In this document: positions 20,950 through 33,747 of the stretch, piece by piece | Layout of the letters: the number at the start of each line of letters is the position of its first letter | Position numbering within the stretch: position 1 is the stretch's first letter | Source: a virus | Lineage: Duplodnaviria > Caudoviricetes | DNA length: 64,000 nt | Strand: one strand, 5' to 3' | Virus record (IMG/VR): IMGVR_UViG_3300037422_000298 | Made by a program: the position numbers and the translations under genes | The notes under the pieces: model-generated | Told to the model about the DNA's origin: nothing | Database searches by the model: none | The model's input: the letters and a program-made list of their open reading frames with translations, nothing else

Positions 20950-20979
20950 CCTGACAACTGAAGAGCGCGCCAAATTTTC

Positions 20980-21119
20980 CGGGGGTCACGCCGGTCGGTC
21001 CGGCACTTGAATACGGATCAAGCAAACACTCAACAGCGGCACTCGGCGTCGACGTTCACGCGAAGACGCCACTCGTCGAATGTTTACAAGCTAGTGGTTC
21101 GACTCCACAACCCCCGACC
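20980..21119 (+). tRNA. RNA C: tRNA-like, ACG (Arg) anticodon, 70-nt structured variable-arm insert
   Basis: Acceptor CGGGGGT/ACCCCCG, GCCGG/CCGGC D arm, CTTGA-ATACGGA-TCAAG, TTCGACT T loop; insert 21023-21092. Confidence 0.65.
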
Positions 21120-21242
21120 GAAGTCGTCATCCAGAGGTGCTCACACGCATAGCTCAATCGAAGAGCGTCGCCCTGATAAGGCGAAGGTTGCGGTCTCATA
21201 AACCGCTGCATTCAACACCCAGCATCTCACCTCGACGGCTTC
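21120..21242 (+). ncRNA. RNA D: tRNA-Ile(GAT)-like body on an extended interrupted stem
   Basis: GAAGTCGTC/GACGGCTTC and GAGGTGCT/AGCATCTC stems enclose a D arm, TCGCC-CTGATAA-GGCGA and a T-position arm with CTCATAA loop. Confidence 0.7.
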
Positions 21243-27698: not shown

Positions 27699-28064
27699 AT
27701 GGCCGTTACTCTCACGCTCGTCTCGGCGACGCCACATTCACTCAAGTATCTTTGGACGCACGACGGCGTCGGTGGCGCGAGCATTCAGCGTACGCAGGCG
27801 CAGATTCTTGCGGACTTCGCGGGCATCCAAGGGCCGAGTCCTCTCAAGGATGCCCTCAGTACTACCAGCGATGCCGTTTGGGCTGCGCTCCAAGCTAGCT
27901 CACGGCTCTCGGTGTACACGACCATCACAGCTTTTGGTGTAGTCACTTGCATTCGTGGAGCGCTCGTACTGGATCCGGGTCGGGTGTTGGACGTCGACGG
28001 TGTCAACGGCGCTGCAGCTGCGGCACTCGTCGAGATTCGATTCCATCACACGATCGAACGGTAA
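27699..28064 (+). CDS. Putative virion protein, HTIE family paralog 1
   Basis: MAVTLTLVSATPHSLKY...VEIRFHHTIER; AGGAG RBS; palindrome 27645-27662. Confidence 0.8.
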   Translation: MAVTLTLVSATPHSLKYLWTHDGVGGASIQRTQAQILADFAGIQGPSPLKDALSTTSDAVWAALQASSRLSVYTTITAFGVVTCIRGALVLDPGRVLDVDGVNGAAAAALVEIRFHHTIER

Positions 28065-28122: not shown

Positions 28123-28500
28123 ATGGCCGCCACGCTGACGTTGATTTCTGCGACACCCTACGCGCTCAAGTACAAGTACGCCTACGACGGCATCGGCGCG
28201 CAGGGTATCGTTCGTACGCAGGCGCAGATCCTCGCCGATTTCGCGGGCGTCAAGGGCCCGAGTCCGCTCAAGGCGCTGCTTGCGGCAGCAACAGCCAATG
28301 CCGTGTGGCAGGCCCTTGACGAGGGTCCGAACCTGTCGATCTACACCAACGTTACGTTCACGGCGGCAGCGTCACAGGCCGTGCAATCGGACCTCGAAGT
28401 TGTCGTCCCGGACGGCAACGTTCTGAGCGCCAGTACGGCCGCCGGTTCGGCGCATCAGGCTGTGATCGAGCTGCGCTACCACCACACGATCGAGCGCTAA
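28123..28500 (+). CDS. Putative virion protein, HTIE family paralog 2
   Basis: MAATLTLISATPYALKY...IELRYHHTIER; same RBS text (gccaaggagaaagacc) as paralog 1. Confidence 0.8.
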   Translation: MAATLTLISATPYALKYKYAYDGIGAQGIVRTQAQILADFAGVKGPSPLKALLAAATANAVWQALDEGPNLSIYTNVTFTAAASQAVQSDLEVVVPDGNVLSASTAAGSAHQAVIELRYHHTIER

Positions 28501-28538
28501 CGCTTGCGACGTCGGTCTTGACTCGATACGGTCGGGCC

Positions 28539-29048
28539 ATGGAAGACCCGACCGTCAACGTCAAGTACTCCGAGTATCAGAAGCTGCGCGAAGATCTGAA
28601 GCAGCTGCAGGCGCGCGTCTACGAACTCGAAGCGCAAGTCACGTCAGGACAACTCGCCGATCCGACGGGTACGACGAAACTCCTGCATGACGGCTTCCAT
28701 GCAGCGATCAAGGTCGTACAGTTTGCCGTCGGCAACCTTGCACCGGAAACGGTCGCGGGATGGCCACACGAGGCGCTCGTCGAGATCGCCGATGCGATCG
28801 ACAAGATCCCCGGTATGGATCAGCACGTGAAGGAACTGCCGCCAGAGCTGCGGCACTTCGCGAAACTCACGGCCGGTTACGAGACGTACCGCAAGGAACG
28901 CGACAAGAGCCGCGTCGTCACCGTCGCGACGGCTGAAGATTTCGGCCCGAAAACGGCTGAAGCTGCAGCGGTGCACGCAAGTCACACGAGATCGAGCGCG
29001 GAAAAGCCACCGGAACCAACGACCTCGGACGAAGCATCGCAACGTTGA
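28539..29048 (+). CDS. Hypothetical coiled-coil protein
   Basis: TACGGT -10 is 6 nt before ATG 28539. Confidence 0.65.
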   Translation: MEDPTVNVKYSEYQKLREDLKQLQARVYELEAQVTSGQLADPTGTTKLLHDGFHAAIKVVQFAVGNLAPETVAGWPHEALVEIADAIDKIPGMDQHVKELPPELRHFAKLTAGYETYRKERDKSRVVTVATAEDFGPKTAEAAAVHASHTRSSAEKPPEPTTSDEASQR

Positions 29049-29180
29049 CAGTGTTCCAGGCTGATGATACCCGTAGACGTAAGCGAGCGCTCTAGCTCGG
29101 CGTTCGTGGCTCTCTGCTCGAACCAAAGTCCCCGTCGGTGCGGTCCCCTAGCCGAGCCGACGGGGCCACACAAAATCCCA

Positions 29181-29252
29181 ATGCACCAGATCCTGCTCTC
29201 CGTTCGACTTCGTCAGCTACGTCAGTTAGCTGGCTCGACGTCGTTGCGTTGA
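29181..29252 (+). CDS. Putative Leu-codon leader peptide MHQILLSVRLRQLRQLAGSTSLR
   Basis: Uses CTG, CTC, CTT, CTA, TTA, TTG once each; stop is 10 nt before tRNA-Leu. Confidence 0.65.
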   Translation: MHQILLSVRLRQLRQLAGSTSLR

Positions 29253-29262
29253 TCGAGCTGGA

Positions 29263-29337
29263 GCTGGCGTAGCTCAACTGGAAGAAGCCGCGAGCTTAAA
29301 CCTCGCGCAAGTGCGGGTTCGAATCCCGTCGCCAGTA
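29263..29337 (+). tRNA. tRNA-Leu (TAA)
   Basis: GCTGGCG/CGCCAGT acceptor, GCGAG-CTTAAAC-CTCGC, TTCGAAT; short variable loop. Confidence 0.85.
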
Positions 29338-29342
29338 CGAAC

Positions 29343-29417
29343 GTCGCGGTAGCCCAACTTGGTAGCGGCAATGCGTTGAGCGCGCATCCAGTGAGGGTTC
29401 GAATCCCTCTCGCGACA
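29343..29417 (+). tRNA. tRNA-Leu (GAG)
   Basis: GTCGCGG/TCGCGAC, ATGCG-TTGAGCG-CGCAT, TTCGAAT. Confidence 0.85.
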
Positions 29418-29426
29418 CGATCACAA

Positions 29427-29500
29427 GCCGACGTAGCCCAACTGGTAGCGGCAACGTGTTCAGCGCACGTTCAGTGCGGGTTCGAATCCCGCCGTCGGTA
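29427..29500 (+). tRNA. tRNA-Leu (CAG)
   Basis: GCCGACG/CGTCGGT, ACGTG-TTCAGCG-CACGT, TTCGAAT. Confidence 0.85.
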
Positions 29501-29524
29501 CGAGTGACGATCCTTCCAACGACA

Positions 29525-30199
29525 TTAGTGATGCCTGAGCGTGACGTCGACGGAGCTGATCGCTTCGGGCAAGAGTGCGACTGAATGTGTAAGAAACGGC
29601 AGCTGCTCCAAGAGCTTGAAGATCGTTTCTCTCGCGCGTTCGACAAGATCATCAAACTTGCAGTCGACGCAGTCGGTCGCGGTTCGTTTCAGCGCGCCGT
29701 CCAAGAGCGTCGCGTGATGATCCACCAACGGCAACCAAAGAGCTTCGTCGATGTCAGCGATTGCTGCAAGCGATTTCGCGACCGCGGCCGAGTCGCGGAG
29801 CATTCGTACGCAGTGCATTTCGTACTTCATCGCGCGCAACGCCGACACGTACGTCTCAAGCAGCAAGCAGAATCGGGGATCCTTGATCGTGATCAATGTG
29901 TCTTCGCCAAAGACCTGCGATATGCGTTCGCGAATGACCTCCACACGGGTCGGTGTTACAGGTATCGGCTGTACTCTTTTGGGATCGAAAGGAAGCCCGT
30001 ACCAAGGTACGCCGACCTCGAACAGGATTTGCTTGTTCAATTCTGTGAGCTGCGTGTTCTCGAAGTATCCCTTGGCGTTGAAAGCGTCTCCGAACTTGAG
30101 ATCCTTACCAAGACTCGCACCCAAGATCTGAAGCACGCCCGTCATCGCGCTCGTGCCACTACGCCCTGTACCTACGACAAGGATCGCCCGTTTGACCAT
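29525..30199 (-). CDS. Sulfotransferase family protein
   Basis: PAPS-binding loop ILVVGTGRSGTS, FNAKGYFE, IKDPRFC. Confidence 0.8.
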   Translation of the reverse strand: MVKRAILVVGTGRSGTSAMTGVLQILGASLGKDLKFGDAFNAKGYFENTQLTELNKQILFEVGVPWYGLPFDPKRVQPIPVTPTRVEVIRERISQVFGEDTLITIKDPRFCLLLETYVSALRAMKYEMHCVRMLRDSAAVAKSLAAIADIDEALWLPLVDHHATLLDGALKRTATDCVDCKFDDLVERARETIFKLLEQLPFLTHSVALLPEAISSVDVTLRHH

Positions 30200-30214
30200 A
30201 TGCGCTCGAAACAT

Positions 30215-30288
30215 GCCAGTGTATCCCAACAAGCAGAGGAGCCCGATTTAGGATCGGGTCGTTGCAGGTGCAAGTCCTGTCGCTGGCA
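30215..30288 (+). tRNA. tRNA-Leu (TAG)
   Basis: GCCAGTG/CGCTGGC, CCCGA-TTTAGGA-TCGGG, atypical TGCAAGT T loop. Confidence 0.8.
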
Positions 30289-30292
30289 CGAC

Positions 30293-30366
30293 GCCACCGT
30301 AGCCCAACCTGGCAGAGGCCCGGTCTCAAACACCGGACAGCGTCGGTTCGACTCCGACCGGTGGTA
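30293..30366 (+). tRNA. tRNA-Leu (CAA)
   Basis: GCCACCG/CGGTGGT, CCGGT-CTCAAAC-ACCGG, TTCGACT. Confidence 0.85.
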
Positions 30367-30377
30367 CTCTTTTCGAT

Positions 30378-30620
30378 ATGGCCAAGCGTTGCGCCTCGGG
30401 TGACTTCAAGGACCATCCGATCATTCGTCAGATTGTCGATCGTGTTCATGTAGGTACGCCCGACGCCGAAGTGCTCGACTACGCGCGGTCACGCCTGGCG
30501 CGCGGTGCTTGGAACAAGATGTCTGCGAAGAATCAGAAGGCGTTCGAGTGCGAGGTGCTCAAGGTTCACGAACGCAACCGCACCACGTACCGTCAGGTGA
30601 TGCGCGGTGCACGACGCTGA
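30378..30620 (+). CDS. Small basic hypothetical protein
   Basis: 80-aa ORF after the tRNA-Leu array. Confidence 0.6.
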   Translation: MAKRCASGDFKDHPIIRQIVDRVHVGTPDAEVLDYARSRLARGAWNKMSAKNQKAFECEVLKVHERNRTTYRQVMRGARR

Positions 30621-30730
30621 CAAGCTACTCTCGACTTAGGCGGGGTTCGATTCCCCCGTGGGACACCGTCTACGTGCACATGCGCGACCCACCCGATCGC
30701 TCGCGCGATCGGATATGATCAGCGCCTGCG

Positions 30731-31435
30731 ATGGCGACGATCCTGAAGAACATCTTACGGTTCACAGGGCTCGTCGTTGGCGTACCCGTCGCGTTGCCGC
30801 ATCGGCTCAACGTCAACGACGTTCCCGTTCTTCCTCGGCTGGTGATCCCCAACGAGGGTGGTCATACCGTCACGGCCGACACGTTGAATGTGACGGTCAC
30901 CCGAACGGCACTAGGCACGGCCACCGTCGACGTTTACATCGAGTTTTGGCACACGATCGAGGCAGTTGTTCCGCTGGTTCCGCCGCCGGGTAAGCTAGTC
31001 GGTCTCGTTCCGTTCATCCTCGAACCGGGCGCAAGCATATTACCGGTGGACGCTGCCGCAGTCGTCGCGTTCGGCAACAACTCGGTTGCTGCCGCAGCCG
31101 ACACGCGATTCTTGGATCAGTGGCGTAGCACGACGACTGCAGGCACCGCCGAGACAACTCCGATCGTTGCGCCTCGCGCAGGGACCTTGCGAAATCTGTT
31201 CGTCCGACATCAAGCAGCCGTTGGAAACGGCAACTCGATTACCTATCGCGTTCGCATCAACGGCGTGAACACAACGATCACCGTAACGCTGGCAACAGGT
31301 GCGATTGCACAGACGTCGGACTTGGTCAACACGGCTGCCGTCGCGCAAGGTGATCGGATCACGCTCAGCGCGACGAAGGCGCTCGCTCTTGGAAACGGTG
31401 CAGTGATTCCATCTGCGACCCTGGAGTTCGTCTAA
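30731..31435 (+). CDS. Putative virion spike/adaptor: HTIE-family N-domain plus beta-sandwich
   Basis: N-domain homologous to 45822..46451 (LKN..F.GL.VGVPV.L.H.LNVN..WHTIE); palindrome 30694-30711 plus TATGAT. Confidence 0.75.
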   Translation: MATILKNILRFTGLVVGVPVALPHRLNVNDVPVLPRLVIPNEGGHTVTADTLNVTVTRTALGTATVDVYIEFWHTIEAVVPLVPPPGKLVGLVPFILEPGASILPVDAAAVVAFGNNSVAAAADTRFLDQWRSTTTAGTAETTPIVAPRAGTLRNLFVRHQAAVGNGNSITYRVRINGVNTTITVTLATGAIAQTSDLVNTAAVAQGDRITLSATKALALGNGAVIPSATLEFV

Positions 31436-33567: not shown

Positions 33568-33596
33568 TTGACGCTTCCACCGTCGACCGCTACAGT
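33568..33596 (+). promoter_or_regulatory. Sigma70 promoter of the tRNA-Ser unit
   Basis: TTGACG(33568-33573)-17 nt-TACAGT(33591-33596). Confidence 0.75.
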
Positions 33597-33603
33597 CGTC
33601 GTC

Positions 33604-33651
33604 GTGAAGTTCTCGCGCCGGTCATCTCGCTCGTCTAGTAGCAGTCGCTAA
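33604..33651 (+). CDS. Putative Ser-codon leader peptide (V/M)KFSRRSSRSSSSSR
   Basis: GTG is 7 nt after the -10; 8 Ser codons of 5 types; stop is 10 nt before tRNA-Ser. Confidence 0.65.
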   Translation: MKFSRRSSRSSSSSR

Positions 33652-33661
33652 AGCGACTCCT

Positions 33662-33747
33662 GGAAGGTGAGGTCCGCATGGCGTGGACGCCCGTCTCGAA
33701 AACGGGAAGCCCTTAACTGTGGCCGGGTTCGATTCCCAAACCTTCCG
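33662..33747 (+). tRNA. tRNA-Ser (CGA)
   Basis: GGAAGGT/ACCTTCC-G, CCCGT-CTCGAAA-ACGGG, long variable arm, TTCGATT. Confidence 0.85.

Follow-up and report, generated by a model that had tools for sequence, protein, structure and literature searches.

Organisation of the tRNA-Leu locus

The window analysed here, the whole 64,000-nt stretch of DNA, belongs to a giant uncultured phage and has ~61% GC and phage-like content. Five tRNA-Leu genes were identified in it, and their anticodons (taa, gag, cag, tag, and caa) together read all six Leu codons. The array is preceded by a short ORF, referred to below as the leader mini-ORF, and by a conserved upstream module with a promoter-like site. These features are located as follows.

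29045-29073, plus strand: promoter-like site, TTGACA (29045-29050), 17 nt, and TACCCG (29068-29073), overlapping the 3' end of a gene for a 176-aa protein
29080-29172, plus strand: conserved upstream module, with a 5' hairpin, GGCTCTCTGCTCGA (29108-29121), a hairpin CCCCGTCGG...CCGACGGGG (29130-29165), and CCACACA
29181-29252, plus strand: leader mini-ORF of 23 sense codons and TGA (29250-29252), peptide MHQILLSVRLRQLRQLAGSTSLR; Leu codons CTG 29193, CTC 29196, CTT 29208, CTA 29217, TTA 29226, and TTG 29244
29253-29262, plus strand: 10-nt spacer TCGAGCTGGA, from the stop codon to nt 1 of the first tRNA
29263-29338, plus strand: tRNA-Leu(UAA), 76 nt, short variable loop, A73, CCA not encoded
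29343-29418, plus strand: tRNA-Leu(GAG)
29427-29501, plus strand: tRNA-Leu(CAG)
30215-30289, plus strand: tRNA-Leu(UAG)
30293-30367, plus strand: tRNA-Leu(CAA)

The preliminary description of this DNA placed the end of the ORF 10 nt before an array covering every Leu codon, and the start of tRNA-Leu(taa) at 29263 agrees with that distance. A minus-strand ORF (29525-30232) interrupts the array after the third tRNA-Leu gene. All five are 75–76 nt long, with variable loops of 4–5 nt and A73 and without an encoded CCA; the long variable arm of the bacterial type (class II) is absent from them.

A mini-ORF containing each Leu codon once

All 23 sense codons of the ORF read as previously claimed, with CTG, CTC, CTT, CTA, TTA, and TTG occurring once each. 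Leu accounts for 6 of the 23 codons, which are dispersed along the ORF and not in tandem, and the leader frame alone is rich in Leu codons, the other five frames holding 0–3 kinds. The rarity ascribed to two of these codons was borne out, with TTA and CTA representing 0.6% and 6% of the Leu codons, respectively, in 35 long ORFs.

Such a combination is itself uncommon in the window. All six Leu codons were found together in only 2 places among 127,864 windows of 23 codons (six frames), and among the 502 ATG ORFs of 10–40 codons the leader ORF was the single case. When six Leu codons are drawn from the phage usage (35 long ORFs), all six are different with P ~4e-4, and shuffles of the ORF's own letters gave all six kinds in 3e-4 to 1e-3 of the trials.

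The leader frame is also open upstream to an ATG at 29064 (62 aa), which was missed in the preliminary description. This extension is broken in relatives by spacer indels that are not multiples of three, as is a minus-strand ORF at 29092-29277, and both were rejected.

Regarding codon usage, TTA occurs 5 times in the 9,788 codons of the 35 long ORFs, yet tRNA-Leu(UAA) heads the short-arm arrays. Codon-usage matching fails to explain the presence of this tRNA.

Distribution of the leader in related phages

The 176-aa protein encoded upstream has 52 homologues in metagenomes. In the tree of this protein, the window and all the relatives found with a Leu array fall within one 17-member clade, except L026 (P0038), which belongs to a group sister to that clade. 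The relatives L005-L007, members of a sister clade, keep the promoter-like TTGACA-N17-TAC.CG, GGCTCTCTGCTCGA, and the hairpin ending in CCACACA, and they have neither a mini-ORF nor Leu tRNAs. This distribution indicates that the mini-ORF and the Leu tRNAs come together and that the upstream module is older than the leader ORF.

Ten distinct leaders were obtained from related metagenomic phages, and all ten contain an ATG ORF of 20–27 codons. The codon pattern is conserved in these relatives, with all six Leu codons present in frame in nine of the ten leaders and five kinds in the tenth. The ATG is invariant in the 10 leaders, and the spacer that precedes it varies in length and sequence. All the leaders come from one phage family, so these cases are not independent.

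Type A comprises the leaders of the window, L012, L008, L021, L018, L013, L016, and L001, which share the positions of all six Leu codons. The TGA is destroyed by a 1-nt insertion in L013 and L016, and the frame extends to a TAG that overlaps nt 1 of the tRNA, gaining a second CTG. Type B leaders (L020 and L014/L015) have a different 5' third, with a perfect 13-bp hairpin. L020 presents the codons in the order CTC, TTA, CTT, CTG, CTA, TTG, once each; only CTT and CTA occupy positions homologous to type A, the four others having moved. L014/L015 contains five Leu codon kinds. In L026, which belongs to a more remote clade and has a single tRNA-Leu(caa), the leader represents a third version (type C): its 3' half differs, and it contains eight Leu codons, among them all six kinds. 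Two diverged leader versions keep all six kinds with four of the six at other positions. Furthermore, the codon set does not follow the content of the array: L026 has one tRNA and L008 lacks the tag tRNA, and both leaders contain the six kinds.

Five type A leaders, L014, and a Ser leader of the window described below have 10 nt between the stop codon and the tRNA. Elsewhere this distance is -1, 18 (L023), 19 (L026), 21, or 25 nt.

In the cultured-phage collection, no relative of the region was found, the sole match being 61 nt long, at the level of the tRNA, in Erwinia and Enterobacter phages. Exact and degenerate DNA patterns searched against viral and metagenome contigs identified one other contig only, a 221-kb UViG, and no relative of the flanking protein was detected in the species genomes scanned.

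Substitution pattern in type A leaders

Within type A, 18 of 66 sites are variable, and none of the 18 Leu-codon sites is among them (P=0.001). The pattern holds in codons 2–14, where 15 of 27 non-Leu sites vary compared with none of the 12 Leu sites (P=0.0007), and at third positions, which are variable in 8 of the 16 other codons and in none of the 6 Leu codons. The residue is altered in 7 of the 11 variable codons (Q/R, I/F, V/A/T, Q/W/R, R/H, G/S, and R/C), which indicates that codon identity is conserved, not the peptide. Four codons differ between the window and L008, three of them synonymously.

The 3' half of the ORF is nearly invariant, third codon positions included. In addition, each Leu codon falls within or beside a paired segment, so that the RNA structure could by itself account for the invariance of these codons in type A. 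Taken together, the sequence comparisons support the view that selection, not chance, maintains the complete Leu codon set in frame.

Two alternative foldings of the leader RNA

Two foldings, termed state X and state Y, were identified for the leader RNA. The segments involved are listed below.

29212-29234, plus strand: hairpin H1 (state X), GTCAGCTA, loop CGTCAGT, and TAGCTGGC, at the top of a long leader stem (29195-29258)
29215-29226, plus strand: 'anti-acceptor' segment AGCTACGTCAGT, complementary to tRNA nt 1-12 (29263-29274) over 12 contiguous pairs
29235-29252, plus strand: hairpin H2, TCGACGT, CGTT, and GCGTTGA, the apical part of state Y, which includes the stop codon

In state X, positions 29212-29219 pair with 29227-29234, and RNAalifold places the ORF in one long stem in which columns 57-75, 58-74, and 45-90 stay paired through two-sided changes. 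In state Y, 29215-29226 pairs with tRNA nt 1-12 and 29227-29231 with the spacer at 29256-29260. Across eight sequences, 97.5% of the state Y cells are paired, compared with 25–41% when the partners are slid, and covariation was observed at columns 58-118 (three sequences) and 64-112 (L001 only). Position 29215 (column 58; A or G) covaries both with 29231 (column 74, in H1) and with tRNA nt 12, which suggests that the leader either folds on itself or captures the first 12 nt of the tRNA. The H1 loop also covaries with tRNA nt 6 in L001.

The preliminary description had pointed out a repeat of AGCTGGC, which is found at 29228-29234 and 29262-29268, and had proposed an alternative pairing with the 5' end of the tRNA. 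This pairing is real and had been understated, extending over 29215-29226 and tRNA nt 1-12. The accompanying suggestion of leader attenuation stands as far as exclusive, covarying foldings are concerned; the implied trp/leu type is not supported, no U-tract terminator lying between the ORF and the tRNA. The covariation supports a model in which the ORF is embedded in two mutually exclusive foldings, one of which uses the 5' end of the first tRNA.

The 12-bp duplex between leader and tRNA has a dG of -19.8 to -24.4 in type A, matched by 0–3 of 500 shuffles, and the best duplex partner of each leader is its own tRNA. The complementarity is not significant for the type B leader L014 (91 of 500 shuffles) or for the Ser leader of the window (149 of 500). 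In joint folding, the leader-tRNA pairing lies ~4.5 kcal/mol below the leader plus cloverleaf, in a model that ignores tRNA tertiary structure and steric effects. When 28-nt ribosome masks were applied in silico, the cloverleaf was restored only with the ribosome at the stop codon, among the positions modelled, and the response had no single sign across all six codons. Capture would directly affect the first tRNA only. A replaced tRNA survives in L018 and L020 as a remnant that supplies the 3' strand of state Y; the tRNA that comes next has a long arm and is not captured.

Upstream module and signals for expression

At the promoter-like site, TTGACA and TA.CC.T are invariant in 10 aligned relatives, and the site is kept also where the Leu array is missing. 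The consensus promoter scan did not call TTGACA-N17-TACCCG; the sequence of 29045-29073 nevertheless suggests a promoter function. In the module that follows, GGCTCTCTGCTCGA is invariant and single-stranded, the 5' hairpin covaries, and the loop of the second hairpin (GGTCCCCTAGCC) is invariant. The promoter-like site and the module (29045-29172) may together represent a small RNA gene or a regulatory site. A long-range pairing of GGCTCTCTGCTCGA with the spacer was considered and rejected, position 29259 being T, A, or C without compensation. In relatives lacking the Leu array, the module sits between convergent genes (L005 3505-3655, L006 3538-3682, and L007 3711-3843).

No Shine-Dalgarno or other purine-rich motif was found before the Leu ATG (CACACAAAATCCCA) in the window or in the relatives, in agreement with the lack of a clear ribosome-binding site noted earlier for the ATG at 29181. 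A Shine-Dalgarno sequence precedes roughly a third of the 35 long ORFs, counted at the first start picked, which may not be the true one. A leaderless promoter directly before the Leu ATG was also rejected, since TAnnnT is missing and the distance to the ATG is not constant (3–9 nt).

A scan of 28400-30800 detected no intrinsic terminator (GC hairpin and U tract) in 29049-29262, and the sequences that come after states X and Y, TGGAGC and CAACTGG, are not U tracts. Rfam searches of 29040-29275 gave no Leu_leader or T-box match at E up to 10, the matches at E ~2-3 being at chance level, and at the gathering score tRNAs were the only Rfam matches in the window.

A Ser mini-ORF before tRNA-Ser genes

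A second mini-ORF of this kind was observed in the same window.

33568-33661, plus strand: Ser leader, TTGACG, 17 nt, TACAGT, 7 nt, and an ORF from GTG 33604 to TAA 33651, peptide MKFSRRSSRSSSSSR

This mini-ORF contains 8 Ser in 15 codons, with 5 of the 6 Ser codon kinds, and ranks second by Ser fraction among 1,928 short ORFs. Its stop lies 10 nt before tRNA-Ser(CGA) at 33662, the first of a tRNA-Ser pair (cga and gct). The 221-kb relative keeps this mini-ORF, a 3-nt indel leaving the frame intact, and the Ser leader of a relative (L023 1492-1590, minus strand) has 9 bp complementary to tRNA-Ser nt 1-9. Because the GTG follows the TACAGT -10 box by 7 nt, the Ser mini-ORF is probably leaderless. 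These features support the view that the Ser mini-ORF repeats the theme of the Leu leader. In the window and relatives, no cognate-codon mini-ORF was found before the Tyr, Lys, Gln, Phe, Pro, Gly, Thr, Asn, or Met tRNAs. The Lys-Arg-Pro-Val-His block of the 221-kb relative offers a weak candidate only (MKLKRSTARILAPS, followed by a stop).

Proposed mechanism and alternative explanations

We propose that the phage probably ties its Leu-tRNA output to the ribosomal reading of Leu codons. Specifically, we consider it somewhat probable that ribosomes translate the 23 codons as a leader and thereby gauge Leu decoding, and that this gauge gates the tRNA-Leu precursor through the two foldings. In state X, the leader would be self-paired in the long stem and the tRNA free to fold. 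In state Y, tRNA nt 1-12 would be captured, and the acceptor and D-stem strands would be kept from the cloverleaf. A ribosome within the ORF would cover or separate the pairing segments, so that its dwell time on Leu codons would set the share of processable tRNA. By listing every synonymous codon of a six-codon family (Leu and, more loosely, Ser), such a leader would feel a shortfall of any isoacceptor. As the full codon family is present whatever tRNAs follow, the leader would gauge overall Leu decoding and not each phage tRNA. We infer that the leader is translated and that its translation affects tRNA yield; as for the sign, design logic alone favours slow Leu decoding leading to more tRNA. 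The form that the output would take is proposed more tentatively. A translation-operated 'anti-acceptor' switch, in which the ORF RNA captures tRNA nt 1-12 unless ribosomes dwell on it and so gates tRNA maturation, is possible and at present rather doubtful.

The same translated Leu sensor could instead control transcription termination, either Rho-dependent or at a hairpin lacking a U tract, an output that we regard as fairly unlikely in place of tRNA capture. In the Rho version, the 5' half of the leader, rich in C and poor in G, would be closed to Rho for as long as a ribosome lingers there, as with TnaC, and state X would hide the C-rich stretch that state Y exposes. From CCACACA to codon 11, this stretch contains 41–44% C and 7–16% G in all three leader types, compared with 31% of each in the window, which makes a Rho-based output a live alternative, with the limit that a C-rich, G-poor composition by itself does not define a rut site. 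Such an output would affect the whole array and not the first tRNA alone. It would work also in L018/L020, whose state Y ends in a remnant instead of a tRNA, and in type B, for which the pairing with the tRNA is not significant, and it accords with the absence of an intrinsic terminator. However, it leaves the covariation of the leader with tRNA nt 6 and 12 unexplained, the Ser leader is not C-rich, and highly structured tRNA transcripts are expected to be poor Rho substrates. An untranslated, structured 5' leader, serving as a folding or processing element (RNase P or E) with the ATG ORF and its Leu codons as by-products, appears unlikely on balance. The lack of a Shine-Dalgarno sequence would suit it, as would the near invariance of the 3' half even at third positions, the location of all Leu codons in or next to paired segments, and covariation that reflects selection on RNA pairing. 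Nevertheless, a complete Leu set without redundancy, confined to a single frame, is not what structure would predict, nor is its survival in types B and C, where four of the six codons have moved and the helices have changed. Structure likewise gives no reason to expect that the ATG is invariant, that its distance in codons to CGA-CTT is fixed and the frame survives indels, or that a Ser-codon ORF precedes Ser tRNAs.

Two further explanations concern the ORF itself. That it encodes a functional small peptide, an Arg/Leu-rich amphipathic 23-mer whose codon choice is incidental, is highly improbable. The Leu residues at positions 5, 6, 10, 13, and 16 do resemble helix spacing, and the mostly synonymous differences between the window and L008 (three of four codons) point the same way. 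Yet the residue changes in 7 of the 11 variable codons, the type B peptide differs in sequence and contains prolines, and six different Leu codons are not expected under the phage usage (P ~4e-4, as above). Furthermore, the third positions of the Leu codons never change, which is the opposite of selection at the protein level. Least probable of all is a chance ORF in a conserved intergenic region. Short open frames are frequent at 61% GC, with 154 ORFs of at least 60 aa overlapping a 20-kb stretch; the rarity counts, the shuffles, the substitution pattern, and the conservation in ten leaders and three versions make this reading very unlikely.

Comparison with known regulatory systems

Phage tRNA genes are usually regarded either as a constant supplement that suits codon usage or as substitutes for tRNAs that host defences remove, and to our knowledge the control of their output is largely unknown. 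The leuL, hisL, trpL, thrL, and ilv leaders of E. coli and Salmonella, transcription attenuators of amino-acid operons, offer a close layout: they likewise have a short ORF, enriched in cognate codons, between a promoter and the regulated genes, and mutually exclusive foldings, whose remodelling by the ribosome is predicted in the present case. The Leu leader differs in that the regulated genes would be tRNAs and not biosynthetic enzymes, and in that it holds one codon of each synonymous kind spread along the ORF instead of a tandem run. It also has no U-tract terminator, Shine-Dalgarno sequence, or Rfam match, and its alternative helix uses the first 12 nt of the tRNA itself.

In tnaC of the tna operon and in the mgtL/mgtP and corA leaders of Salmonella, a stalled ribosome or an alternative fold decides whether Rho has access to a C-rich stretch. 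The Leu leaders carry a C-rich, G-poor stretch as well, a likeness of composition only, whereas here tRNA genes are the targets, and Leu decoding would be sensed in place of Trp, Pro, or Mg2+. T-box riboswitches are similar in being cis RNAs with a codon-like specifier that link tRNA status to expression. However, they bind tRNA without a ribosome, have a Stem I and a T-box sequence, and control synthetase or amino-acid genes. In the leader, Rfam detected no T-box, and the UGGA before the tRNA varies (GTA, AGGA, and CGGA) and is unmatched to A73. In mycobacteria, leaderless short ORFs with Cys codons are described as attenuating operons, as cis sensors without a Shine-Dalgarno sequence (bioRxiv 10.1101/834739). 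In that account they are, like the mini-ORFs presented here, unannotated and rich in one amino acid, and the Ser mini-ORF is probably leaderless too; the mycobacterial ORFs as presented there control protein-coding operons, and the Leu mini-ORF is not at a transcript start.

Full-text literature searches found no published account of leader ORFs controlling tRNA genes, which agrees with the earlier impression that such control is undescribed for phage tRNA arrays. A mini-ORF with each Leu codon once provides a directly testable candidate sensor of decoding capacity, and the competition of a leader segment with the tRNA acceptor strand would offer a new output logic. If the proposed gauge is real, leader-peptide control would reach beyond amino-acid supply to the supply of tRNAs, the organisation of tRNA arrays by amino acid in large phages would be easier to explain, and synthetic biology would gain a compact sensor part. 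The anti-acceptor switch, if true, would represent a principle distinct from terminator-based attenuation, with the tRNA's own acceptor strand as the regulated element.

Additional features of the tRNA genes and neighbouring proteins

Long-arm Leu tRNAs of 82–87 nt were found at the same locus, behind the same leader, in L018 (922-1255) and L020 (1962-2236). The first tRNA of the array is caa in L018, L020, and L026. The cultured Erwinia phage Hena2 (L025) has annotated tRNA-Leu genes of 77–78 nt. In L013 (1895-2005) and L016 (2068-2178), a tRNA-like sequence that ARAGORN did not call lies between tRNA-Leu(cag) and tRNA-Leu(tag), with an acceptor GCCGCCG/CGGCGGC, a T-loop TTCGAGA, what looks like a CAG anticodon loop, and a ~40-nt variable arm.

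The minus-strand ORF that splits the array in the window (29525-30232) encodes 224–235 aa with a P-loop-like motif (GTGRSGTS) and also splits the array in L012. The five tRNA-Leu genes are contiguous in L001, and in L014 a different ORF, of 138 aa, interrupts the array. Paralogous small proteins of ~120–125 aa are encoded at 27699-28064 and 28123-28500 of the window and at 5187-5600 of L008. They start with M.ATLTL.SATP, end with ..R(F/Y)HHT(I/F)(E/D)R, and recur beside tRNA blocks in the window and relatives. Pfam gave no match for four neighbouring proteins, including the array-splitting ORF and the small paralogues.

Elsewhere in the window, Rfam identified a tRNA at 21143-21214 that ARAGORN missed. 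Upstream of it, in the region 20950-21140, the T-arm-like sequence GGTTCGACTCCAC was observed, forming part of an odd cluster of tRNA-like RNAs beside tRNA-Met and tRNA-Thr.
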